From assembly GCA_963721805.1 (NCBI GenBank), contig CAVRJY010000002.1:352001-416000 (forward strand): 64,000 nucleotides of DNA, written 5' to 3'. Below are positions 14,804-56,791 of the stretch, in pieces. A model generated the notes under the pieces. That model saw only the letters and a list, made by a program, of their open reading frames with translations. It searched no databases and was not told the origin of the DNA. The stretch comes from Nitrospirota bacterium (GTDB lineage Bacteria > Nitrospirota > Thermodesulfovibrionia > Thermodesulfovibrionales > JdFR-86). Numbering within the stretch: position 1 is the first letter of the stretch; each line of letters begins with the position of its first letter. Position numbers and translations under genes: made by a program.

Positions 14804-14874
14804 CAGCAAACTATACCATAAGAAAGCCCGTTAGGCAACAGGTTAACGCTTCTTCTGCTGGCGGGATCTTTTTC

Positions 14875-14997
14875 AAAGCGCTCCAAATCGCTTGATACTG
14901 CGTTGGGCTTCAAAGACTCGCCCTCTATGTACGTCACAATACACCATCGGGCGGTCTTCTTGCCCTGCCTTGTCTGAAGACGATTTGGGCGCGCTTT
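14875..14997 (-). repeat. Structured ~123-bp hairpin repeat, copy A (associated GGTCAACGGCA at 15046-15056)
   Basis: Reverse complement reads AAAGCGCGCCCAAATCGTCTTCAGACAAGG...GTACATAGAGGGC...ACGCAGTATCAAGCGATTTGGAGCGCTTT, nearly identical to copy D. Confidence 0.92.
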
Positions 14998-15110
14998 CGG
15001 GGGGAAGAAGAAGGTGCCCATGGCACCGCCCCCCGCGCCCCACGAGGTCAACGGCATGATTAGCACCCCGCCCATGAAAGCGAGCGATATTGCGGCAGAC
15101 AAGGAACGCC

Positions 15111-16205
15111 CGCGGATTGTAATGTGAAGTGCAACACCTGTGAAAGAAAAAGCCCATCGTCATCCTGTTCTGTTAGAGTCAAGTACCAACCAGACGAAAC
15201 AGAGAGGGAGGGACGATGGGCTACAGTCATTTTAGCATTGATGAGCGGGAGGGCATCGCAAGGATGCGTTATGCGGGGGTGAGCATACGTGAGATCGGGC
15301 GCCAGCTTGGCCGCTCGCCATCGAGCGTGAGCCGGGAGCTGCGGCGCAACACGAAGAAGTCTTTCTATGGCGCGCACGCCGCAACCGTGCTCTATGTCCG
15401 CCGAAGGCATTTTGCGAGCAGACGCCTGAAGCGCTGGCCGGACGGCCTGATCGGCTATGCGATGGCGGGACTTTGCAGGCGTTGGTCGCCGGAGCAGGTG
15501 TCGGGCCGCCTTAAGCTTGACCATCCACATAGCACAGAGATGCGGATATCCTTTGCCACGCTATACAGATGGATACGGCAGGACAGGGCGATGGGGGGCT
15601 CGATGCATCGCATGCTGAGGCGTAAGGGAAGGAGCTACAGAAAAGCCCGGGGGCCTGAGACCAGGGGCCGGTTCAATGGGGCGTTGAGCATCAGGCAGCG
15701 CCCCGAGATCGTGGTCCGGAAGGGACGCTTCGGGGATTGGGAGGCGGATACCGTCTACGGGTTCGACGGGAAAACGTGCATCGCAACGTTTAACGAGCGC
15801 AAGAGCCTCTACCTTATATCGAGGAAGATGCCGAGGCCCGGCTCGGAGGCGTTGAGGGAGGCCGCCGTATCGGCGCTGGGAGGCCTGCGGCAGGGCATGC
15901 GTATGACCATGACCGTGGACAGGGGCAGCGAGTTTGCATGCTACAGGGACTTAAAATACATGATGGGGATCGACGTATACTTCGCCGACCCCTATTGCTC
16001 ATGGCAGCGCGGCCAGAACGAAAACCTCAACGGGCTGCTGCGGCAGTACTTTCCGAAGGGGATCGACTTCAACACAGTAACGCAGGAGCAGCTGGATCGC
16101 GTCGTTGATGAGATTAACAACAGACCAAGAAAAACGCTGGACTACAGGGCACCCGCCGAGGTTGCGGCAAATGCGCGCCTGTTGCACTTGGCTTGACAAT
16201 CCACT
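15111..16205 (+). mobile_element. IS30-family insertion sequence, copy 1 (1095 bp)
   Basis: 26-bp imperfect IRs: CGCGGATTGTAATGTGAAGTGCAACA and rc AGTGGATTGTCAAGCCAAGTGCAACA. Appears identical to 45059-46153. Confidence 0.93.
15216..16196 (+). CDS. IS30-family transposase
   Basis: N-terminal HTH (SIREIGRQLGRSPSSVSRELRRN), WSPEQ, GDWEADTV, DRGSEF, PYCSWQRGQNENLNGLLRQYFPKG, NNRPRK. Confidence 0.96.
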   Translation: MGYSHFSIDEREGIARMRYAGVSIREIGRQLGRSPSSVSRELRRNTKKSFYGAHAATVLYVRRRHFASRRLKRWPDGLIGYAMAGLCRRWSPEQVSGRLKLDHPHSTEMRISFATLYRWIRQDRAMGGSMHRMLRRKGRSYRKARGPETRGRFNGALSIRQRPEIVVRKGRFGDWEADTVYGFDGKTCIATFNERKSLYLISRKMPRPGSEALREAAVSALGGLRQGMRMTMTVDRGSEFACYRDLKYMMGIDVYFADPYCSWQRGQNENLNGLLRQYFPKGIDFNTVTQEQLDRVVDEINNRPRKTLDYRAPAEVAANARLLHLA

Positions 16206-16759
16206 GCGAGAAAAATGACCGGAGGCGTACTGAACGTACGTCGAGGACATTTTTCGAGGCAGAGACGCAGTATCCCGCAATTGCAGCCGCTTTCAGTTAT
16301 ATACATAGTTATCGCGCGTGCCCGCGCGCGCGCTTTTTTTTAGAGCGTTCAAATGAACAAACAAAACATGTTCTAACCCAGCGGAATTCATCGCTTTTTT
16401 CGGGCCTCCGTGTTCATGCGTTCAGAAACGTTTTTCGCGCGTACCACCGCCTCCGGCATCGCCTTCTGCATCTTCAAAATGAGCATATCAGCCTCATCAC
16501 ATATTGAAGCACATCGAAATGAAAAAAGCGATAACCTACTGTTTATATATAAACCGAAGTTGATAGAAAAAATTGATCGCCGTGCGTTTTCTACTAACTT
16601 TCGATTAACTATAGTTACTGACAGGAAAAATTATGGGAGTTACGCACTCCCACTAATGAACTAAAGCTGGTCGTCCCTTCGCTGGAGCGGCCCGTTTTGC
16701 AATTAAAGCCGTTGACCTTGGGGTGCGGGGTCCAGCGGCTGGGCCGCGTCTAACCCCGC

Positions 16760-16882
16760 AAAGCGCAGCCAAATCGTCTTCAGACTAGGAGCGGAGAGGA
16801 AAACGTCCGACGGTGTACTTGGGCGTACATCGAGGACGGATTTCCGAGCAGTGACGACGTATCAAGCGATTTGGGGCGCTTT
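16760..16882 (+). repeat. Hairpin repeat copy C (GCCGTTGACC at 16708-16717)
   Basis: AAAGCGCAGCCAAATCGTCTTCAGACTAGG...GTGTACTTGGGCGTACATCGAGG...ACGACGTATCAAGCGATTTGGGGCGCTTT. Confidence 0.92.
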
Positions 16883-16900
16883 CAAAAAAACTACCGGTAG

Positions 16901-17518: not shown

Positions 17519-17577
17519 CTGCAATTACTGCCTTTGACCTTGTGGGGCGCGGGGGGCTCTTTTATTCTCTCCCCCCG

Positions 17578-17700
17578 AAAGCGCGTCCAAATCGTCTTCA
17601 GACAAGGCAGGGCGAGAAGACCGCCCGATGGTGTACTTGGGCGTACATAGAGGGCGAGTCTTCGATGCCCAACGCAGTATCAAGCGATTTGGAGCGCTTT
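17578..17700 (+). repeat. Hairpin repeat copy D (TGCCTTTGACC at 17529-17539); overlaps the aconitase stop codon
   Basis: AAAGCGCGTCCAAATCGTCTTCAGACAAGGCAGGGCGAGAAGACCGCCCGATGGTGTACTTGGGCGTACATAGAGGGCGAGTCTTCGATGCCCAACGCAGTATCAAGCGATTTGGAGCGCTTT. Confidence 0.93.
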
Positions 17701-19627
17701 AACTAACATTCTTGCGGGTATACGGCAGCAGCCCGCCCGCCTCAACGAGTGCGGCCTCGCGCTCGTTCAGGCCCGACGTCACCTCGAACGAAAATCCCTT
17801 TGTCACGTCCTCGACCTTGCACGTGCCGCTCAGGCATCCCTTCGCGTCCGCGATGCGCAGCGTGTCTCCCTGCTCGATGCGGTCATAGTCGGCCGGGTTT
17901 TTAAACACGAGCGGAAGGACGCCGAAGTTGATGAGGTTGCTCCTATGTATGCGCGCGAAGGCCTTGGCTATCACGGCCTGAAGGCCGAGGTACATCGGGG
18001 CCATCGCGGCGTGCTCGCGCGATGAGCCCTGCCCGTAGTTGTCGCCGCCGACCACGAAGAAGCCATTGAGCCCTTTCGCCCGCTGGTCGAACCTGTCCTC
18101 GACCGTTCCGAAGACATAGGCCGAGATCGCCGGGATGTTCGAGCGCAGCGGGAGCACCTTCGATCCCGCGGGCATGATGTCGTCAGTCGTGATGTTGTCT
18201 CCAAGCTTTAGCGCGACGGTCGCCTCAACCGATCCCTGAAGCTCGGCCTTCACCGGGACTTCCTTTATGTTCGGGCCCTTGACGACCGGCACCGATGCGG
18301 CATCCGGGCGCGGCGGTATGAGCATGTTGTCGTTTATGAGGAATTTCTTTATATCCTTGAACTCGCCCACTGTGAGGTCGGTCTTGAACGGGTCGACGAA
18401 CTCGCCCTTGAGCGCGAATAGCGCGCACAAAAGCGGGTTCATCAGGTATACCGAGGCGGTCTTGTTGCCGCTTCTGCCGTGGAAGTTGCGGTTATACGAG
18501 CGCACGGATACCTGGTTCGTACCCGGCGTGCCGCCCATGCCTATGCACGGCCCGCACGATGCCTCGTACATCCGCGCGCCGGCCGAGACCATGTCAGCGA
18601 GCGAGCCGTCGCGGCCGAGCATCTCGTATACCTGCTTAGATCCGGGGTTTATAAGCAGGCTCACGCCCTTTGCAAGCGTGTGGCCCTTCAGAAGCGAGGC
18701 GACCTGCCTCATGCCCTGGTACGACGAGTTCGTGCAGCTCCCGATGCATGCCTGATGGATCTTCGTGCCGACGAGCGAGCTGATCGTGGCGACGTTGTCA
18801 GGGCTGTGGGGCTGCGCGGTGAGTGGCTCGACCGTCGAGAGGTCTATCTCTATAGTCTCTGCGTACTTCGCGCTTTTATCGGCTGAGAGCTTCGTCCAGT
18901 CGGCCTCGCGGCCCTGGGCCTTCAGGAAGGCGCGAGTGACCTTGTCAGACGGGAATACCGAGGTCGTCGCACCGAGTTCCGCGCCCATATTTGTAATGGT
19001 CGCGCGCTCGGTGAGGCTCAGGTCGAGGACGCCCTCGCCGGTGTACTCGAATATCTTCCCGACCCCGCCCTTTACGGTCAGGCGCCTGAGGAGCTCCAGT
19101 ATCACGTCCATCCCCGTGACCCAAGGCCTGCGGAGCTTTCCGGTTAATCTCACCTCGACTATCGCGGGCATCTTGAGTTCAAACGGCGCGCCGGCCATAA
19201 CGGTCGCGGCATCGAGGCCGCCCACACCGATAGCGAGCATCGCCATGCCGCCATTGGTGGGGGTGTGGCTGTCGGTGCCGAGCGCGATCATGCCGGGCTT
19301 GGCGAAGCGCTCCAGATTGATCTGGTGCGAGATGCCGTTTCCGGGACGCGAGAACCACGCCCCGAACCTCGCTGCGACTGACTCCAGGAATGCGTGGTCG
19401 TCAGCGTTCATGAAATCGGTCTGGAGCGTGTTGTGGTCTACGTATGAGACCGCAAGCGGGACCTTCACGCTGTCTACGCCTATAGCCTCGAACTGGAGCC
19501 ACGCCATCGTGCCGGTGGCGTCCTGCGTATAGACCTCGTCTATGCGGACGCCGATGGTCTCGCCTGCCTTTAATTTGCCGTATGCCCTGTGGGCCTCAAG
19601 TATCTTCTCGGCTACGTTTCTTCCCAT
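17699..19627 (-). CDS. Aconitate hydratase (short aconitase-family type)
   Basis: QDATGT, DSHT, IGSCTNSS, CGPCIG, NITTDDIMPAG and NYGQGSSREHAA. Start ATG 19627 after AGGAG. Confidence 0.88.
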   Translation of the reverse strand: MGRNVAEKILEAHRAYGKLKAGETIGVRIDEVYTQDATGTMAWLQFEAIGVDSVKVPLAVSYVDHNTLQTDFMNADDHAFLESVAARFGAWFSRPGNGISHQINLERFAKPGMIALGTDSHTPTNGGMAMLAIGVGGLDAATVMAGAPFELKMPAIVEVRLTGKLRRPWVTGMDVILELLRRLTVKGGVGKIFEYTGEGVLDLSLTERATITNMGAELGATTSVFPSDKVTRAFLKAQGREADWTKLSADKSAKYAETIEIDLSTVEPLTAQPHSPDNVATISSLVGTKIHQACIGSCTNSSYQGMRQVASLLKGHTLAKGVSLLINPGSKQVYEMLGRDGSLADMVSAGARMYEASCGPCIGMGGTPGTNQVSVRSYNRNFHGRSGNKTASVYLMNPLLCALFALKGEFVDPFKTDLTVGEFKDIKKFLINDNMLIPPRPDAASVPVVKGPNIKEVPVKAELQGSVEATVALKLGDNITTDDIMPAGSKVLPLRSNIPAISAYVFGTVEDRFDQRAKGLNGFFVVGGDNYGQGSSREHAAMAPMYLGLQAVIAKAFARIHRSNLINFGVLPLVFKNPADYDRIEQGDTLRIADAKGCLSGTCKVEDVTKGFSFEVTSGLNEREAALVEAGGLLPYTRKNVS

Positions 19628-39036: not shown

Positions 39037-42000
39037 ATGAAATCAAGACCATACCTCACACGTATCTCGCTGGCTGTCCTGATCCTGTCGGCTTTTCTTG
39101 CCTATGGCACGACCGCCTATTGCGTCCCGGCCTCCCCGTTTAGCAGCGAGGTGACGCAGGCCGACGGCACGAAGGTCAAGGTGCACATCAAGGGCGACGA
39201 GTGGCAGCACCACGTCGAGACGACCGGCGGCTTCACGATCGAGAAAAACGACAAGGACCACAACTGGTATTATGTCGACCACTACGACAAGGGCAAGCCC
39301 GTACTGAGCAATACGCCTGCGCATCTTGGCCCGCCCTCGGGACTGAGGAAGGGCATCCGGCAGGACATCCAGCCCCAGAGGCTAAATCTCAACGCCCCGT
39401 CAGGTTCGTCCTTGTCCTTATCCGTGTCGGGCTCCTCCGGGACCGGTTCGGCAACGGTTTCCGCATCGTCTTCGAACCTCTCGCCGCCCGTTGGGAGCTT
39501 CAACGGCAAGGTCTTGATTATCCTCGCTTCATTCAGCAACAGGGCAGGCACTTATTCCGAGGCGCAATTCGCTAATTACCTGACACAGATAAGCACATAC
39601 TACAATACGGTGACATATGGCAACGTAAAACTCTCTCCGGCCACCGAGACATACGCGCTCAACAACGGCACGGCCAACGACGGCGTCGTAGGCTGGCTGA
39701 ACCTGGGCTATAATTATCCGAACACCCTCTCTAGCAACCAGACCACCGCCAACACCGCTGTCCAGCAGATCGCGCATGACGCGATAACCGCGGCCGAGCC
39801 ATACGTAGACTTCGCCTCGTTCGACACGAACCATGACGGGTACGTGGACTCGACCGAACTCGCGATACTGATAGTAGTTGCCGGCTATGAGGCTTCTTAC
39901 GACAACTCAACTCCGGCCATCTGGGCCAACACCTGGAACCTTGGCGCATATGTCCCGGTCGTGACCGTAAACGGCGTAACCGTGGGTTCCGGCCATAACG
40001 GGCTTTCATACTCCGAGATCGGCGAGATGCAGGGCAGCCACATGGCCACGGTCGGCGTCTCGGCGCACGAACTCGGCCACGAGATGTTCCAGTACCCTGA
40101 CCTCTACGACACCTCAGGGAATACCGAGGGCGACGGCGACTATTCCCTCATGGCAGCCGGAAGCTGGGGGACTTCCAACTCTGACACATACTACGGCCAG
40201 ACCCCGGTTGCGATAGACGCCTATCTCAAGCGCAAGAGCGGCTGGATCACCCCCGTGGCCGGAGCCAGCAGCGTGTCGCTCGAGGCGGTGGGCGATACAT
40301 CCGCGAACGCGACGAACACTGCCGCGATCATCAACACCTCCGCCTCCAACGAGTTTTTTCTCTTCGAGAACCGGGGCGACTTCGGGTATGACCGGGGTTT
40401 CGAGCGGCTGATACCGGGCTTCACCGGCGGGCTCGCGATATGGCACGTCGACACTAACAAGGATACCGGCAGCTATGCCGCCAACAATACCGTCAACACC
40501 GAGGCCTGCTACCCGCCGAACAACTGCGCTACGACTCATTATATGCTCGCGCTCGAACAGGCCGATGGCCACTGGGACCTCGAAAACTCCACGACGACAT
40601 ATCTCTATGACAACCGCGGCGATACCGGGGACCTCTATCCCGGATCGACGAACAATACGATATTCAATTCGACATCAACCCCCAACAGCAACATGTACAG
40701 CGGCGCATCCAGCGGGGTCCATATTTCAGCCGTATCTTCTCCGTCTTCGTCCATAACGATACACTTCAACGATAACCCCGTTACGACTGCCTCGGCCACC
40801 GGATACGCCTTCGGCGCATGGAGCAACTCGGCTTCGGTCGCGGTCACGCTGATCGCAAACGACCTGAGCGGCTTGGGTATCGCGGCCGGGTATCCGAAAT
40901 ACTGCGTCGACAGCTCAAACGCCTGCACGCCCTCGACCTCGTATTCCGGGGCGTTAGACGTGACCTGCGCCTCGGGCAGCGCATGCACGCAGTACGTCCG
41001 GTATTTCGCCCAGGACAACGACGGCGACACCGAGAGCGTAAAGAGTTCGACTGTCAGGCAGGACCTCCAAGCCCCTGCAACCACGCCTTCGGCAACCGGC
41101 TATGCGTTCGGGAACTGGTCGTCCTCGGCCTCGATCAGCGTGACTCTATCGGCAAGCGACGGCGCGGGCTCTGGCGTGGCGTCCGGTTATCCGAGATACT
41201 GCATCGACAGCTCGAATGCCTGCACGCCTTCCACGCCTTATTCCGTGGCGCTTAACGTGACATGCCCGGCAGGCGGAGTCTGCACCCAGTACGTTCGGTA
41301 CTACGCCCAGGACACTCAAGGAAACGCGGAGGCCGTGAAAAGCTCGACCGTGAACCAGGACCTCCAACCCCCGGTCACCACTGCCACGCCATCGGGCTAC
41401 GCGTTTGGAAGCTGGGGCTCCTCTGGCTCGATAAGCATAACTCTGTCGTCTGACGACGGCGCGGGATCGGGCGTGGCCTCGGGCTACCCGAGGTACTGCG
41501 TCGATACAGCGAATACCTGCACGCCAGTGACCGCATATTCGGTCCCGTTTAACGTCACCTGCGCCTCGGGCAGCCTCTGCACCCAGTACGTGCGGTACTT
41601 CGCGAGGGACGTAGCGAGCATCAACGAGGCCGTCAAGAGCTCGGTCGTCAAGCAGGACGGCCAGCCGCCTGCTACCTCGGCCTCCTCGGCCGGGTATACT
41701 TTCGGAACCATTTCGCACTCCGGTTCGGTCGGCGTTACGCTTGCGGCGTCTGACGGGGCCGGCTCTGGAGTCGCCGCGGGCTATCCGGTATACTGCGTGG
41801 ATATTACGAACACATGCGCCCCGGGGACCGCATATTCCGGCGCGATCAGCGTGACATGCGCGGCCGGGATCGCCTGCACTCAATACGCGCGGTACTATTC
41901 CGTCGACAATGCCGGGAACGCCGAGGCAACCAAGAGTTCAGCCGTGATACAGACCGTGCCGCTGGAAGTTGGTTCGGTCAGCATCAATAACGGTGCAACA

Positions 42001-44968: not shown

Positions 44969-45058
44969 GTTTGTAACTCTTATCAAAGATTTTGACCGCT
45001 CGCACGATTATGCGGAGGAAACTTAAAGCGCGAGAAATCGTGTCAGACAAGGCAGGGC

Positions 45059-46153
45059 CGCGGATTGTAATGTGAAGTGCAACACCTGTGAAAGAAAAAG
45101 CCCATCGTCATCCTGTTCTGTTAGAGTCAAGTACCAACCAGACGAAACAGAGAGGGAGGGACGATGGGCTACAGTCATTTTAGCATTGATGAGCGGGAGG
45201 GCATCGCAAGGATGCGTTATGCGGGGGTGAGCATACGTGAGATCGGGCGCCAGCTTGGCCGCTCGCCATCGAGCGTGAGCCGGGAGCTGCGGCGCAACAC
45301 GAAGAAGTCTTTCTATGGCGCGCACGCCGCAACCGTGCTCTATGTCCGCCGAAGGCATTTTGCGAGCAGACGCCTGAAGCGCTGGCCGGACGGCCTGATC
45401 GGCTATGCGATGGCGGGACTTTGCAGGCGTTGGTCGCCGGAGCAGGTGTCGGGCCGCCTTAAGCTTGACCATCCACATAGCACAGAGATGCGGATATCCT
45501 TTGCCACGCTATACAGATGGATACGGCAGGACAGGGCGATGGGGGGCTCGATGCATCGCATGCTGAGGCGTAAGGGAAGGAGCTACAGAAAAGCCCGGGG
45601 GCCTGAGACCAGGGGCCGGTTCAATGGGGCGTTGAGCATCAGGCAGCGCCCCGAGATCGTGGTCCGGAAGGGACGCTTCGGGGATTGGGAGGCGGATACC
45701 GTCTACGGGTTCGACGGGAAAACGTGCATCGCAACGTTTAACGAGCGCAAGAGCCTCTACCTTATATCGAGGAAGATGCCGAGGCCCGGCTCGGAGGCGT
45801 TGAGGGAGGCCGCCGTATCGGCGCTGGGAGGCCTGCGGCAGGGCATGCGTATGACCATGACCGTGGACAGGGGCAGCGAGTTTGCATGCTACAGGGACTT
45901 AAAATACATGATGGGGATCGACGTATACTTCGCCGACCCCTATTGCTCATGGCAGCGCGGCCAGAACGAAAACCTCAACGGGCTGCTGCGGCAGTACTTT
46001 CCGAAGGGGATCGACTTCAACACAGTAACGCAGGAGCAGCTGGATCGCGTCGTTGATGAGATTAACAACAGACCAAGAAAAACGCTGGACTACAGGGCAC
46101 CCGCCGAGGTTGCGGCAAATGCGCGCCTGTTGCACTTGGCTTGACAATCCACT
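45059..46153 (+). mobile_element. IS30-family insertion sequence, copy 2 (1095 bp), 2-bp GC target duplication
   Basis: Same IRs and transposase as copy 1. Removing the IS and one GC restores CAAGGCAGGGCGAGAAGACC as in copy D. Confidence 0.93.
45164..46144 (+). CDS. IS30-family transposase (same translation as 15216..16196)
   Basis: Identical 326-aa translation in the ORF track. Confidence 0.96.
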   Translation: MGYSHFSIDEREGIARMRYAGVSIREIGRQLGRSPSSVSRELRRNTKKSFYGAHAATVLYVRRRHFASRRLKRWPDGLIGYAMAGLCRRWSPEQVSGRLKLDHPHSTEMRISFATLYRWIRQDRAMGGSMHRMLRRKGRSYRKARGPETRGRFNGALSIRQRPEIVVRKGRFGDWEADTVYGFDGKTCIATFNERKSLYLISRKMPRPGSEALREAAVSALGGLRQGMRMTMTVDRGSEFACYRDLKYMMGIDVYFADPYCSWQRGQNENLNGLLRQYFPKGIDFNTVTQEQLDRVVDEINNRPRKTLDYRAPAEVAANARLLHLA

Positions 46154-46268
46154 GCGAGAAGACCGCCCGACGGTGTACTGAGATGTACTCCGAGGGCGTG
46201 TCTTTGAAGCACTGACGCAGTATCACGCGCATTTCGCACGCTTTGAAAAAGGATACCGCAACCGCACG

Positions 46269-53310: not shown

Positions 53311-53319
53311 CCCTTTTTC

Positions 53320-53440
53320 AAAGCGCTCCAAATCGCTTGATACGTCGTTGGGCATCGAAGACTCGCCCTCTATGTACGCCCAAGTACACCATCGGGCGGT
53401 TTCCTCGACCTTCCTAGTCTGACGCGATTTATCGCGCTTT
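53320..53440 (-). repeat. Hairpin repeat copy F (GGTCAACGGCA at 53479-53489)
   Basis: + strand AAAGCGCTCCAAATCGCTTGATACGTCGTTGGGC...CCTAGTCTGACGCGATTTATCGCGCTTT, starting 9 nt after the ispF stop. Confidence 0.92.
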
Positions 53441-53828
53441 GCGAAGTGCGCGGCCCAGCCGCTGCCTCCGCGCCTCGTGGTCAACGGCATGATCGGGATT
53501 CCGCCCATCGGCTTACTATAGTTACGCATACCGCGCGCGCGCCTTTTTTTTTATAGCGTTCGGATGTTTGAGGCAAAATCAAGGCTAACCCGACGAAAAA
53601 CAACGATTTGCTGACCGAAACCTCGTTCGGATGTTCGGATGTTTTTGGCCGAAACCCGGGCGATGTTCGAATCCAGTCTGATATTAGTTTAAGTGCGTAA
53701 ACTTTCCGGATCTCTAGGCCAGCTAAATATATCTCTATACACATCGTGCGCGATGATAAACCAACAGGGCGGAACTGCGCCATGGGAACTGGTTCCTAGG
53801 AACCGGTTCCATGGAACCAGTTCCTAGG

Positions 53829-55028
53829 TGTAAAGGTTACGCTCTTACCGGACAGTATCAGGCTGGAAAAAGCAGGCGGCAGCCAGCCCTTCCATCGGTT
53901 AGAATGTTTCACCACAAAACACAGACCGAAGGAGGAAGGGCATGACTGCCAAAGAAAAGATATCACAAGGGAGGCTTTCAATGCTTCAGCTGGCCGAGAG
54001 GCTCAGGAACGTGTCGGAGGCCTGTCGCCGCCGGGGGGTGAGCCGCAGCCAGTTTTACGAGTACAAGCGGGCGTTTCAGGAGCAGGGGTTTGCGGGGCTC
54101 GCGGACCTTCCGCCGATAGCGCGTAGCTGTCCCCACAAGACGCCTGAGGAGGCCCGCAAGCGAGTGATCGAGATGAGCCTTGCTCACCCCCGGTGGGGGA
54201 AGCAGCGCATCTTCGAGCACCTGCTTCTGGAGGGCATATTGGTGCGTCCCTCAACTGTGTATCGCATCCAGGTTCGCGAGGGGCTGGAGTCGAAGGCCAA
54301 GCGCATCCTCCGGCTTGAGCAGGAGGCTAACGGCAAGGAGATCGAGCTAACGGAGGAGCAGGTCAAGCTCATCGAGCGGGCCAATCCGTGCTTCAGGGAA
54401 AGGCATGTGGAGAGCGCATATCCGGGCTATCTGCTCAGCCAGGACACCTTCACGGTGGGCAAGCTCAAGGGCATCGGGACCGTGTATCTGCAGGCCGTGG
54501 TGGACACGTACGGCTCTTATGCCTTCGGCAAGCTGTACACGTCGAAGAGGCCCGAGACGGCGGCCGACGTGCTCTACGACCGCGTGCTGCCGTTTTACGA
54601 GGACCATGGCATCAGGGTCCAGCATGTCCTGACGGACAACGGCTCGGAGTACTGCGGCAAGCTGCTGCGGCATCCGTACGAGCTGTTTCTGGCGCTTCAC
54701 GACATCGCGCATCGAAGGACGAAGGTGGCGACACCGAGGACAAACGGATTCGTGGAGCGGTTTAATCGCACCATCCTGGACGAGTTCTTCTCGGAGACGT
54801 TCAGGTACCGGTTCTACGCATCGCTCGATGAGCTGCAGTATGACCTCGACCGGTGGCTGCACCACTACAACAACGAGCGCCCTCACAAGGGCTATCGCAA
54901 CATGGGCAGACGGCCAATAGAAACTATCGAGCTGGGCAAAAAGCTAAGACAGAAAGCTGAGGAGGAGGCCGCCTGATCAGTGCGACCGATGAGATGGAAA
55001 ACTGTCCGGAGAGCACTGGACTTTTACA
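53829..55028 (+). mobile_element. IS481-family insertion sequence (1200 bp) with 8-bp TTCCTAGG target duplication
   Basis: TGT...ACA ends: TGTAAAGGTTACGCTCTTACCGGACAGT and rc TGTAAAAGTCCAGTGCTCTCCGGACAGT. TTCCTAGG at 53821-53828 and 55029-55036. Confidence 0.93.
53942..54976 (+). CDS. IS481-family transposase
   Basis: NVSEACRRRGVSRSQFY, QDTF.VG, LTDNGSEYCG, PRTNGFVERFNRT, YNNERPH. Confidence 0.95.
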   Translation: MTAKEKISQGRLSMLQLAERLRNVSEACRRRGVSRSQFYEYKRAFQEQGFAGLADLPPIARSCPHKTPEEARKRVIEMSLAHPRWGKQRIFEHLLLEGILVRPSTVYRIQVREGLESKAKRILRLEQEANGKEIELTEEQVKLIERANPCFRERHVESAYPGYLLSQDTFTVGKLKGIGTVYLQAVVDTYGSYAFGKLYTSKRPETAADVLYDRVLPFYEDHGIRVQHVLTDNGSEYCGKLLRHPYELFLALHDIAHRRTKVATPRTNGFVERFNRTILDEFFSETFRYRFYASLDELQYDLDRWLHHYNNERPHKGYRNMGRRPIETIELGKKLRQKAEEEAA

Positions 55029-55159: not shown

Positions 55160-55284
55160 AAAGCGCGCCCAAATTGTCTTCAGACTAGGAACGGCGAGAA
55201 GACCGCCCGATGGTGTACTGGGATGTACATAGAGGGCGCGTCTTCGCAGCCGTGACGACGTATCAAGCGATTTGGCGCGGCTTT
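55160..55284 (+). repeat. Hairpin repeat copy G (TGCCGTTGACC at 55121-55131); overlaps the nuoM stop
   Basis: AAAGCGCGCCCAAATTGTCTTCAGACTAGG...GTGTACTGGGATGTACATAGAGGGC...ACGACGTATCAAGCGATTTGGCGCGGCTTT. Confidence 0.92.
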
Positions 55285-56791
55285 AGAAGATGGAGCTAAT
55301 AAAGGATTGCGCCAGATTCAGTTCCTGCGGGCGAATGTTGACGCGCGATAGCAGATGCTCCACGCTCGGGTGCAGGAACCCCAGGAACGCGTTTGGATAT
55401 ATGCCGATCCAGAATATCAGCACGATCATCGGCGCGAGCGTCAGGATCTCGCGGATGTCGATGTCCTTCAAGACCGAGACCTTGGGCGTCACCTCAAGGA
55501 AGAAGACCCTCTGATAGAGCCAGAGCATATAGCCCGCGCCGATGATGACGCCGGTCGCGGCGAACGCGCCGGCCATCTTCGAGGCCGTGAAACCGCCCAG
55601 CAGGATCAGGAACTCGCCTACGAACCCGTTCATGCTCGGAAGCCCGATCGAGGCCAGAGTGAAGATCAAAAACAGCGCTGAGAAGACCGGCATCACGGTG
55701 GCCGTCCCGCCGTAGTCCGCGATGCGGCGCGTATGCGTGCGCTCGTATATCGCCCCGACCGAGAGGAAGAGCCCGCCGGTCACGATGCCGTGGTTGACCA
55801 TCTGGAGGATGCCGCCCTCCATGCCCTGCGTGTTGAGCGAGAAAATACCTAGCGTCACGAACCCCATGTGGCTGACCGAGCTGTACGCGATCAGGCGTTT
55901 TAAGTCGGTCTGCGCGAGGCAGACGACCGCGCCGTAGATGATCGCTATAACCGAGAGCGTGAGCATCACAGGGGTCATGGCCACCGTGGCGGCCGGGAAG
56001 AGCGGGAGCGAGAAGCGCAGGAAGCCGTATGCGCCCATCTTGATCAGCACCGCCGCGAGTACGACGCTGCCCGCTGTAGGGGCCTCGGTATGCGCGTCGG
56101 GCAGCCAGGTGTGCACAGGGAACATCGGCACCTTCACGGCGAAGGCCGCGAAGAAGGCCCAGAAGAGCCAGAACTGGAGCTTGTAGGAATATGCGTGCTC
56201 GGCGAGCTCGCGTATGTCGAGCGTGTGGCTGACGCTATAGAGCGTGATAATGCCGACGAGCATCAGGACGCTTCCGACGAGCGTATAGAGGAAGAACTTG
56301 ATCGCGGCGTACACGCGGTTCGGCCCGCCCCAGACGCCGATAAGGAGGAACATCGGGATCAGCATCGCCTCCCAGAAGATGTAGAACAGGAAGAGGTCCA
56401 TTGCGCAGAACACGCCGATCATCGCGCCTTCGAGGATGAGGAGCGCCATGTAGAACTCCTTGACCTTCTTCGTGATCGCGTTCCATGAGATCGTGATGCA
56501 GAGGATCGTGACGAGCGTCGAGAGCAGGACGAACAGCACGCTTATGCCGTCCACTCCGAGCGAGTAGCGGACGTTGAAGGCATCTATCCAGGGCGCGGAC
56601 TCCTGAAACTGCATCGCGAACGTCGTGGTGTCAAACGAGCTAAACAGCGGCAGCGAGAGCAGGAACGTTATGAAGCTCAGCGTGAGCGCCGAGTATTTGA
56701 TCGCGGCCTCGTTGGAGCGCGGGATCATGCCTATGACCAGCCCGCCGACTATCGGCAGGAAGATCAGCGCGCTCAGTATCGGATAACCCAT
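55283..56791 (-). CDS. nuoM: NADH-quinone oxidoreductase subunit M
   Basis: FWEAMLIPM, KVPMFPVHTWLPDAHTEAPT, AYSSVSHMG. Confidence 0.95.
   Translation of the reverse strand: MGYPILSALIFLPIVGGLVIGMIPRSNEAAIKYSALTLSFITFLLSLPLFSSFDTTTFAMQFQESAPWIDAFNVRYSLGVDGISVLFVLLSTLVTILCITISWNAITKKVKEFYMALLILEGAMIGVFCAMDLFLFYIFWEAMLIPMFLLIGVWGGPNRVYAAIKFFLYTLVGSVLMLVGIITLYSVSHTLDIRELAEHAYSYKLQFWLFWAFFAAFAVKVPMFPVHTWLPDAHTEAPTAGSVVLAAVLIKMGAYGFLRFSLPLFPAATVAMTPVMLTLSVIAIIYGAVVCLAQTDLKRLIAYSSVSHMGFVTLGIFSLNTQGMEGGILQMVNHGIVTGGLFLSVGAIYERTHTRRIADYGGTATVMPVFSALFLIFTLASIGLPSMNGFVGEFLILLGGFTASKMAGAFAATGVIIGAGYMLWLYQRVFFLEVTPKVSVLKDIDIREILTLAPMIVLIFWIGIYPNAFLGFLHPSVEHLLSRVNIRPQELNLAQSFISSIF

Follow-up and report, generated by a model that had tools for sequence, protein, structure and literature searches.

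An IS30-family insertion sequence with a probable preference for one position and orientation in an intergenic hairpin repeat

In the window, the whole stretch of 64,000 nt analysed here, two members of a hairpin repeat family are interrupted by an insertion sequence (IS). Both are interrupted at the same place, raising the question of whether the element selects a particular site within the repeat, and how such a site would be recognized. The features are collected in Table 1. Copy 1 is flanked by CAGACAAGGAACGCC on the left and GCGAGAA on the right, and copy 2 by CAGACAAGGCAGGGC on the left and again by GCGAGAA on the right. An earlier note on this DNA had described two 1095-bp copies in the same orientation with these flanks; the sequence agrees, and the copies are identical. 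The distance between CAGAC and the IS is 10 nt as measured, rather than the 11 nt given there. The same note held that the host hairpins differ and that each left arm pairs with its own right arm, and both the flank identities and the folds agree with this. Between the two copies the flanks agree at 27/42 positions on the left and at 66/98 on the right. Pairing of its own arms gives −52.6 kcal/mol for one of the hosts, compared with −41.0 to −42.9 kcal/mol with foreign arms, and −57.4 kcal/mol for the other, compared with −49.9 to −54.7 kcal/mol. When the left arm of copy 1 is joined in silico to the sequence from 16208 onward it refolds as the family hairpin, at −52.6 kcal/mol.

Table 1. Positions of the insertion sequences and hairpin repeats in the window
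Feature	Position	Strand	Remarks
Unoccupied intact hairpin (I1)	14866..15005	−	inverted, directly upstream of occupied copy 1
Host hairpin left arm, copy 1	15077..15110	+	includes CAGACAAGG box; ends in duplication CC (15109–15110)
IS copy 1, 1095 bp	15111..16205	+	ends CGCGGATTGT...ACAATCCACT
Left terminal inverted repeat (IRL), copy 1	15111..15136	+	aligns with IRR, sequence read
Transposase gene, copy 1, 326 aa	15216..16196	+	NF033563, HTH_38, DDE motif
Right terminal inverted repeat (IRR), copy 1	16180..16205	−	aligns with IRL, sequence read
Host hairpin right arm, copy 1	16206..16294	+	starts with duplication GC (16206–16207); profile match C2:368186-368295
Unoccupied intact hairpin	16749..16888	+	repeat comparison and profile match
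Unoccupied intact hairpin, reference	17570..17709	+	carries commonest target, CAGACAAGGCAGGGC followed by GAGAAGACCGCCCG
Host hairpin left arm, copy 2	45025..45058	+	ends in duplication GC (45057–45058)
IS copy 2, identical to copy 1	45059..46153	+	transposase gene 45164–46144
Host hairpin right arm, copy 2	46154..46248	+	starts with duplication GC; repeat families D3 and D4
Unoccupied intact hairpin	53313..53437	−	repeat comparison and profile match
Unoccupied intact hairpin	55160..55288	+	repeat comparison and profile match

The hairpin is an intergenic repeat of ~135 nt with terminal inverted repeats of ~17 nt, dispersed in roughly 190 copies. A profile search gave 230 matches, 188 of which are close to full length, and together the family makes up 1.04% of the genome. 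The 5′ arm contains an invariant box, CAGACAAGG. The commonest target sequence in the family is CAGACAAGGCAGGGC followed by GAGAAGACCGCCCG, and as an empty target it is found in 35/188 members. The reference hairpin folds with −33.7 kcal/mol as DNA (z −5.8) and −64.2 kcal/mol as RNA (z −7.7). No Rfam family matched anywhere in the window at gathering thresholds, and a BLAST search of 40 relatives with one copy of the hairpin found nothing. REP/REPIN elements, one possible identity of the hairpin, are mobilized by a RAYT (Y1 transposase), whose single-copy gene is flanked by the repeats. A search with PF01797 found six identical 144-aa genes inside repeats of 607–675 bp, two of which have a hairpin within 250 bp. 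These genes resemble those of a multi-copy IS200-like element of the ordinary kind, and no single-copy RAYT-like gene was found among the PF01797 matches of the genome.

The 1095-bp element is a true IS30-family IS. Its end-points were set by two copies that lie outside hairpins and have clean 2-bp duplications, GG and CC. Elements of the IS30 family have a single ORF within ~1–1.25 kb and terminal inverted repeats of ~20–30 bp, and they duplicate 2–3 bp of the target. The layout here, 1095 bp with one ORF of 326 aa, matches the family pattern. IRL and IRR match at 18/23 positions across nt 4–26, forming inverted repeats of about 23 nt. The transposase scores 279.2 bits against the NCBIfam model NF033563 (IS30 family; cut-off 80) over model positions 1–267 of 267, and falls well under the cut-offs of the IS481, IS21 and IS3 family models. 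Residues 3–45 correspond to the N-terminal helix–turn–helix HTH_38 (Pfam PF13936, E = 7.5e-16). The Pfam rve models give weak scores (rve_3, E = 0.029), and a sequence search of solved structures with the transposase gave no match at E ≤ 1. The DDE triad is D178-56-D235-33-E269, the residues being placed by motif context and not by structure; the family motif is D-(54–61)-D-(33)-E in the extract of PMC2516522 used here. The 2-bp target duplication is perfect in six of the seven copies in the genome (GC in four, GG and CC). It is imperfect in the assembly at copy 1 of the window, with CC on the left and GC on the right; one contig of sequencing run X1 has G at 15109, by which this duplication would become GC/GC.

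The ends of the element also contain likely promoter elements. Two hexamers, TTGACA in IRR (16193–16198) and TGTAAT in IRL (15118–15123), each lie 7 nt from the tip of the IS, on the right and on the left respectively. IS30-family elements transpose through a circle or dimer with an active IR–IR junction. Judged by sequence, the hexamers are likely to be the −35 and −10 halves of a circle-junction promoter, and abutment with a 2-bp spacer would here set them 16 nt apart. No circle junction was found among the contigs of the sequencing runs examined.

The element has a narrow distribution. DNA searches did not find it in 40 relatives or in 400 genomes sampled across the phylum. Protein-guided scans of genome and metagenome contigs found closest relatives that are 44–45% identical at most, and the identity of the transposase to relatives outside its lineage is no higher than 56%; a 93%-identical protein (P0001) is encoded on a JGI contig of 1263 nt. 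The hairpin profile found 0 matches in 160 loci of distant IS30 relatives. Among the genomes searched the IS occurs in one only, and the targeting is described from that one genome.

A census of all copies in the genome, set beforehand as the test on which the proposal might fail, gave seven and came out in support of it. Six copies are identical, and the other has a single-nucleotide difference. Of the seven, five lie, together with a scar described below, at an identical site of the hairpin, between profile positions 47 and 48, and all have the same orientation relative to it. With the coverage of the genome given above, the probability of finding at least five of seven in hairpins by chance is 2.5e-9; counting conservatively, with at least three of five independent events in hairpins, it is 1.1e-5. 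The common orientation has p = 0.06 taken alone (5/5), and 2 × 0.5^6 = 0.03 when the scar is counted (6/6). The reconstructed empty sites refold as the family hairpin in all five cases, with −52.6 to −65.0 kcal/mol. As a control, an IS481-like element of the same genome, also in seven identical copies, has 0/7 inside the hairpin core. It is highly probable that this IS30-family IS, which was recently active, inserts preferentially into the 5′ arm of the hairpin at a single position and in a single orientation.

The hairpin insertions were independent in at least three cases. The IS copies differ at 0–1 of 1095 nt, while the flanks of the host hairpins are only 57–94% alike and the DNA beyond the flanks is unique. 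Since an identical IS resides in such diverged hosts, the copies arose by separate insertions and not by duplication of a single block, as the earlier note had argued. Its assignment of the targets to a CAAGG/ACGCAG subtype applies to both window copies but does not extend to a significant preference across the genome: CAAGG is present in 5/5 occupied hairpins compared with 117/188 in the family (p = 0.09), and ACGCAG in 4/5. Subtype associations are weak both for CAGGGC-type targets (4/5 occupied compared with 54/187, Fisher p = 0.03) and for the A-variant box (5/5 occupied, p = 0.09). All the occupied hairpins have GCGAGAA immediately to the right of the IS.

The remaining two copies interrupt genes, one of the alpha-amylase family and one encoding a radical SAM protein. 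No motif was found that is common to these two sites, or that either shares clearly with the hairpin target. Because two of seven copies are in genes, the preference for the hairpin is strong but not exclusive, and the proposed specialization of the IS on the repeat stands as a preference (5/7 copies and the scar) but not as exclusivity. To call the repeat a ‘safe harbour’ is to interpret where the copies have ended up. The scar is in a sixth hairpin, C4:339839-339976, which has CAGACAATCCACTGCGAGAAG at the exact insertion site, corresponding to the right tip of the IS, the duplication and the right flank. This remnant is read as the scar of an excision.

Other sequencing runs contain further joints. 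In contigs of runs X2 and X3 the right end of the IS meets a hairpin at this very position; in X3, which comes from another study, the IS is ~94% alike, and an 1181-nt contig of that run has on the left of the IS a flank that is not the canonical hairpin. Two joints in run X1 skip the IS (15055 to 16295 and 15110 to 16251). They were considered as empty alleles, but are not counted as such because their sides are only 29–36 nt and lie within repeats.

How might the site be recognized? The element would move by the copy-out-paste-in route of a DDE transposase, passing through a circle in which the abutted ends rebuild the promoter. The integration site lies 10 nt 3′ of the invariant box, and the staggered cut gives rise to the GC duplication. 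The transposase most likely reads the duplex DNA sequence of the repeat, the recognition signal probably being the conserved box and its surroundings; recognition of a cruciform or a single-stranded hairpin is less likely than this. The element lands in genes as well, the preference not being absolute, and insertions can be lost again through deletion between short homologies.

A more specific form of duplex reading can be suggested tentatively, though we regard it as rather doubtful, in which the IS30 mode of inserting next to an inverted repeat has been turned onto a host repeat, and a short box, GACAAGGCAGG, in the 5′ arm acts as a pseudo-end. This is possible because the 11 nt to the left of the duplication match the right tip of the IS, GACAATCCACT, at 7/11 positions in register, in all five hairpin targets. 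The sites outside hairpins have 3/11 and 1/11 matches. A score of 7/11 is reached at 0.5% of random genome sites for comparison with the IRR tip, and at 2.2% for any of four comparisons; the match is a post hoc one, and its significance is borderline. The earlier statement that the target does not resemble the IS ends is borne out by general local alignment, in which the ends and the hairpin align no better than shuffles, but not in the fixed register of the right tip. The junction of the incoming circle would align pseudo-end, 2-bp spacer and true left end in a junction-like arrangement, and the fixed nucleotide and fixed orientation would thereby be explained. If this is correct, the element would represent a naturally occurring ‘docking’ DDE transposase that is protein-only and orientation-specific and has some 190 landing pads in the genome.

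Instead of the duplex sequence the transposase might read structure, either an extruded hairpin or cruciform or the hairpin that single-stranded DNA would form at the replication fork. Members of the family fold much more stably than shuffled sequences. In all five reconstructed folds one short stem, the same each time, has the cut at its 3′ edge, with the conserved internal loop below. Copy 1 has kept the position even though most of its stems, and the 6 nt beside the cut, are unlike those of the other targets. Nevertheless, this is an unlikely explanation. The hairpin copies are disposed + + + − − on replichores of constant GC skew, with no replication-strand bias, and because insertions occupy both strands of one replichore a single-stranded target on the lagging strand is disfavoured. 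No IS copy occurs at the mirror position of the 3′ arm, and the two copies in genes lie in sites of weak local structure (z −1.4 to −2.1). DDE transposases of the copy-out-paste-in type act on duplex targets. Strand transfer by IS30 goes into duplex hot spots, according to the extract of PMC9333248.

Spread of one original insertion among the hairpins, by homologous recombination or gene conversion via the flanking arms, would preserve position and orientation automatically. Such spread is possible for the three hosts on contig C1, because these are 91–94% alike (across 137 flanking nt). The GCGAGAA common to all occupied hairpins would also fit, as would the right-hand GC of copy 1, which is like that of the other copies whereas its left-hand dinucleotide is CC. 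As an account of the whole pattern it is very unlikely. The flanks of copy 1 are 57–66% identical to the others, and the left flank differs within the 6 nt adjacent to the IS; copy 2 shares about 16–17 identical nt on each side, which is very short for homologous recombination. The right arms of both window hosts fold best with their own left arms, so these hairpins are not hybrids. Moreover the commonest empty target already bears the shared flanks, and the X1 contig would make the duplication of copy 1 GC/GC.

It is barely credible that insertion is essentially random, with only the copies in harmless intergenic repeats persisting. The hairpins are intergenic and probably tolerant of insertions, and the two gene-breaking copies exist, but selection cannot give one nucleotide and one orientation among ~135 positions in 5/5 copies and the scar. 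Since the IS copies are identical there has been little time for purging, and the IS481-like control is never found in the hairpins. That hairpin and IS are one composite mobile unit, with the arms as its true ends and plain hairpins as deletion derivatives, has a negligible probability despite the MITE-like terminal repeats and dispersal of the family, as the arms diverge by 6–43% around an identical IS, two copies have no arms but their own inverted repeats and 2-bp duplications, the IS ends have no similarity to the hairpin in local alignment, and no identical arm–IS–arm unit with duplications outside the arms was found among the seven copies.

The preferred reading, a sequence-directed preference of an IS30-type transposase, can be compared with known systems. 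The element is like IS30 of Escherichia coli in its transposase family, N-terminal helix–turn–helix, DDE spacing, inverted repeats and 2-bp duplication, and in having ends that, from their sequence, would form a −35/−10 pair if abutted. The E. coli element makes 2-bp duplications and has two target modes, hot spots and sites next to its own inverted repeats, in the extracted text of PMC9333248. The present element differs in preferring a host repeat family of about 190 copies. Its site is asymmetric, unlike the nearly palindromic hot spots that the extracts describe for IS30, and insertions there have a single orientation. Inverted repeats are also the reported targets of IS1630 of Mycoplasma fermentans, an element of IS30 type (PMC3317919, in extract), which was reportedly studied by Calcutt et al. 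in 1999. IS1630 is reported to duplicate the inverted repeat itself, with long duplications of a variable 16–26 bp, and its targets vary in sequence; here, by contrast, 2 bp are duplicated, always at one nucleotide within one arm of a single repeat family. The literature searched contained no member of the IS30 family that inserts into a defined repeat family at a fixed position and in a fixed orientation, IS1630 being the nearest. IS1655 of Neisseria meningitidis is a typical element of the same family, and its target specificity was reportedly studied by Kiss et al. in 2007.

Insertion into REP sequences is known for elements of other families. The survey PMC1525189, as far as its extracted text goes, lists the IS3 elements IS1397, ISKpn1 and ISPsy8, the IS110 elements IS621, ISPa11, ISPpu9 and ISPpu10, and ISRm22 (IS4), ISRm5 (IS256) and ISNm1106 (IS5). 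IS30 is not among the five repeat-targeting families in that text; its sole IS30-family entry is IS1655, with a weak association with Neisseria repeats (2/13 and 2/6). As with the REP-targeting elements described there, of which most or all copies lie in such repeats, most copies of the present IS occupy an intergenic palindromic repeat, at a constant position, and the flanks rejoin to an intact repeat. The target differs in being a structured repeat of ~135 nt, compared with 20–40 nt for REP in the extract. The IS110 elements differ from the present one in using another recombinase and a guide RNA (PMC11208160, in extract).

The element therefore adds a new transposase family, IS30, to the insertion sequences known to target such repeats. 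If confirmed at the bench it would provide a compact system, in which a short target and ends of 26 nt are served by one DDE protein of 326 aa, for asking how a cut-and-paste-type enzyme reaches near site-specific, oriented integration. For the bacterium, an abundant structured repeat occupying about 1% of the genome would offer landing pads by which an active IS is largely kept away from genes. In the scar and the two gene disruptions, nature has left a modest record of how insertions arise, are lost and exact a cost.

The tips of the IS30-family element are CGCGGATTGT... at the left and ...ACAATCCACT at the right, and its inverted repeats match at 18 of 23 positions across nucleotides 4–26. 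Membership of the IS30 family is well supported by these repeats, by the score of the transposase against the NCBIfam IS30 family model (279 bits, cut-off 80), by an HTH_38 domain at its N-terminus and by its DDE triad, D178-56-D235-33-E269, which fits the motif D-(54-61)-D-(33)-E as quoted in the available text of PMC2516522. TTGACA and TGTAAT each stand 7 nt in from a tip, the former at the right end and the latter at the left, and with the ends abutted around a 2-bp spacer the two would be 16 nt apart. This arrangement corresponds to the junction-promoter layout of copy-out-paste-in elements, with a putative promoter function. According to the available part of PMC9333248, IS30 transposes via a circular or dimeric form in which its ends abut, and makes 2-bp duplications.

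BLAST and exact end-matching located seven copies in the Nitrospirota genome (contigs C1, C2 and so on), of which six agree at all 1095 bp and the seventh, at C1:626589, has a single difference. The window itself corresponds to C2:352001-416000. The true ends and the 2-bp duplication are defined by the two copies outside repeats. The other five lie in members of the hairpin family, an intergenic repeat of ~135 nt, all at the identical nucleotide and in identical orientation relative to the hairpin. This confirms the earlier note, which had claimed insertion at one position of the repeat from the two window copies. Its further claim, that the element has specialised on hairpins, stands as a strong preference (five of seven copies and a scar described below) but not as an exclusive one, two of the seven copies splitting genes. 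The C6 copy interrupts an open frame of 987 codons that encodes an alpha-amylase catalytic domain, and that at C1:626589 interrupts one of 259 codons encoding a radical-SAM domain; local structure at these two sites is only weak (z -1.4 to -2.1), and they have no clear motif in common with the hairpin target. The duplication is GC in four of the five hairpin-hosted copies. At window copy 1 the left duplication is CC in the assembly; a contig of sequencing run X1 (one contig, depth 7) has G at 15109, by which this duplication would be GC too.

Locations of the insertion sequences and hairpin-repeat features
Feature	Location	Strand	Details
Hairpin-repeat copy 1	window 15077-16294		interrupted by IS30-family element
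IS30-family element, copy 1	window 15111-16205		1095 bp
Transposase ORF	window 15216-16196		326 aa, sole ORF of element
IS30-family element, copy 2	window 45059-46153		identical to copy 1; inside another hairpin-repeat copy
IS30-family copies in hairpin-family members	C2:367111, C2:397059 (window copies), C1:387255, C1:650408, C1:760721		
IS30-family copy, no repeat around	C1:626589		2-bp duplication GG
IS30-family copy, no repeat around	C6:58607		2-bp duplication CC
'Head' module examples	window 15026-15075, 17520-17557, 53459-53508		
IS481-like element	window 53829-55028	+	1200-bp core; 344-aa ORF at 53942-54976
Further IS481-like copies	C2:286368, C1:669723, C1:963112, C1:1454652, C6:5531, C4:309075		
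IS200-like copies, C1	42194-42868, 366464-367070, 1251868-1252487, 1452017-1452630		
IS200-like copies, C4	138451-139057, 146403-147075		

A hairpin profile built from five intact window copies (threshold E<=1e-3) has 230 matches in the genome, 188 near full length, and the family totals 28,925 nt, 1.04% of the 2.775-Mb genome. It has no match in Rfam, searched over the window, and BLAST of one hairpin copy against 40 relatives found nothing. The unit is a long imperfect hairpin (-33.7 kcal/mol, z -5.8 as DNA; -64.2 kcal/mol, z -7.7 as RNA) with two almost invariant unpaired boxes, CAGAC(A/T)AGG in the 5′ arm and GTATCA in the 3′ arm. The IS duplication corresponds to profile positions 46–47, 10 nt 3′ of CAGAC. 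The exact target CAGACAAGGCAGGGC|GAGAAGACCGCCCG is present in 35 of the 188 near-full copies, the AAGAAG variant in 11 and AAGGCAGGGC in 54. Many copies have an upstream 'head' module (...ATGCCGTTGACC..., then a G-run/C-run mini-hairpin), so that the full unit is ~175–210 nt; the IS-bearing hairpins on C1 also have it. C1:456392-456633 and C4:138127-138382 hold tandem arrays of hairpin right halves, three in a row and covering profile positions ~65–140, as well as mixed partial units; other solo right halves begin near profile positions 58 or 70.

The hairpin insertions are more frequent than chance predicts, and at least three of them are independent. The chance of at least five of seven copies falling within the family is P=2.5e-9, computed without counting the identical position within the hairpin. 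Compared in pairs over 42 nt on the left and 95 nt on the right, the flanks of the hosts are 57–94% alike, the IS itself being identical, and the sequence repeated between loci, in blocks of 1219–1277 bp, stops at the hairpin arms. All five reconstructed empty sites regain the fold of the family, at -52.6 to -65.0 kcal/mol. The right arm of window copy 1 folds with its own left arm at -52.6 kcal/mol, compared with -41.0 to -42.9 with others, and that of copy 2 at -57.4, compared with -49.9 to -54.7. With the three similar C1 hosts pooled as one possible event there are at least three independent hits in five events (P=1.1e-5).

An otherwise ordinary hairpin member at C4:339839-339976 carries CAGACAATCCACTGCGAGAAG exactly at the insertion site. 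Alignment to an intact hairpin and to the right junction of the IS shows hairpin sequence as far as CAGACAA, followed by the six nucleotides that end the IS and, after these, by GC and the usual right flank. Five bases of homology are common to the left flank (...GACAA) and the right end of the IS (...GACAA TCCACT). Since deletion between these homologies would give the C4 product, we read the scar as a sixth insertion that matched the others in position and orientation and was subsequently lost. Its inclusion makes the orientation 6/6 (2 x 0.5^6 = 0.03; 5/5 alone gives 0.06).

In Logan contigs of two further runs, X2 (from the same study as the best-holder run) and X3 (from a different study), the IS right end passes into GCGAGAA and hairpin sequence in the same register. 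Because the data from all three runs are contigs rather than reads, and X1 and X2 may be the source sample, X3 alone is counted as independent, and weak, support for the junction; its IS is ~94% alike (69 differences in 1092 nt) and the left flank on its 1181-nt contig is non-canonical. This variant comes from a wetland metagenome (record 18; window 15110-16201), and a 93%-identical transposase, P0001, is encoded on a 1263-nt JGI contig, so the lineage is not limited to this assembly.

IS30 is described in the available part of PMC9333248 as using nearly palindromic hot spots or inserting beside its own inverted repeats, whereas the target of the window element is asymmetric. The earlier note also held that the target is unlike the IS ends. 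This is borne out by general alignment, where the ends match the hairpin no better than shuffles (999/1000 and 518/1000 reach the score), but not in fixed register, where 7 of the 11 nt left of the duplication agree with the right tip of the IS, GACAATCCACT; these 11 nt read GACAAGGCAGG in four targets and GACAAGGAACG in that of window copy 1. All five hairpin targets have this match, and the two gene sites have 3/11 and 1/11. Among 200,000 random genome sites 7/11 is reached by 0.5% in this comparison and by 2.2% in any of four. On this borderline, post hoc match, the hairpin box may possibly serve the transposase as a pseudo-end. The A variant of the box is found in all six hairpin events and in 117 of 188 family members (5/5 gives p=0.09). 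A live alternative is that the transposase recognises the structure of the hairpin, where the insertion point lies at the 3′ edge of a short stem, directly above the conserved internal loop. Cumulative GC skew shows a monotonic rise along the contigs that carry the hairpin-hosted copies; these copies are oriented + + + - - and thus lack the replication-strand bias expected for single-strand targets. Recognition of duplex DNA by sequence is favoured, because of the register-specific right-tip match together with the A-variant box in hairpin targets.

The hairpins do not act as a sink for insertion sequences in general, since the genome also has an IS481-like element (seven identical and three diverged copies, 92–98%) that lies inside a hairpin core in 0/7 copies. 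Its ends are TGTAAAGGTTAC...TGGACTTTTACA, flanked by direct repeats of 6–8 bp (e.g. CCCCGGAA), and in 7/7 copies the right flank passes directly into an array of four to five 12-nt iterons, which are palindromes of the GGAACCAGTTCC type. The genome thus seems to hold another instance of targeted insertion, of a different sort. An IS200-like element (607–675 bp, six identical copies) encodes a 144-aa Y1 transposase (PF01797, 142.7 bits). Only two of its six copies have a hairpin within 250 bp, which makes the element no obvious mobiliser (RAYT) for the hairpin family.

Elsewhere in the window, 40776-41963 comprises four tandem 297-nt repeats, 62–70% identical to the first, probably a repeated protein domain. 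The small contigs C3, C7 and C8 duplicate parts of C1 in their entirety, C3 matching C1:1327954-1347918 and C7 and C8 matching C1:798234-807494, and C6:1-3447 matches C1:1541799-1545246. The assembly may be redundant here, or the duplications may be large and real; C3, C7, C8 and C6:1-3447 hold no IS30-family copies.

The available part of PMC1525189 (Tobes and Pareja) places REP-targeting elements in the IS3, IS110, IS4, IS256 and IS5 families, and its sole IS30-family entry is IS1655, with association of 2/13 and 2/6. In the openly readable literature searched, no element of the IS30 family came to light that inserts into a defined repeat family at one fixed position and in one fixed orientation. 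The evidence supports adding this element, with its strong though not exclusive hairpin preference, to the repeat-targeting insertion sequences, a known behaviour; its targeting provides a mechanistic lead that is testable and moderately novel.
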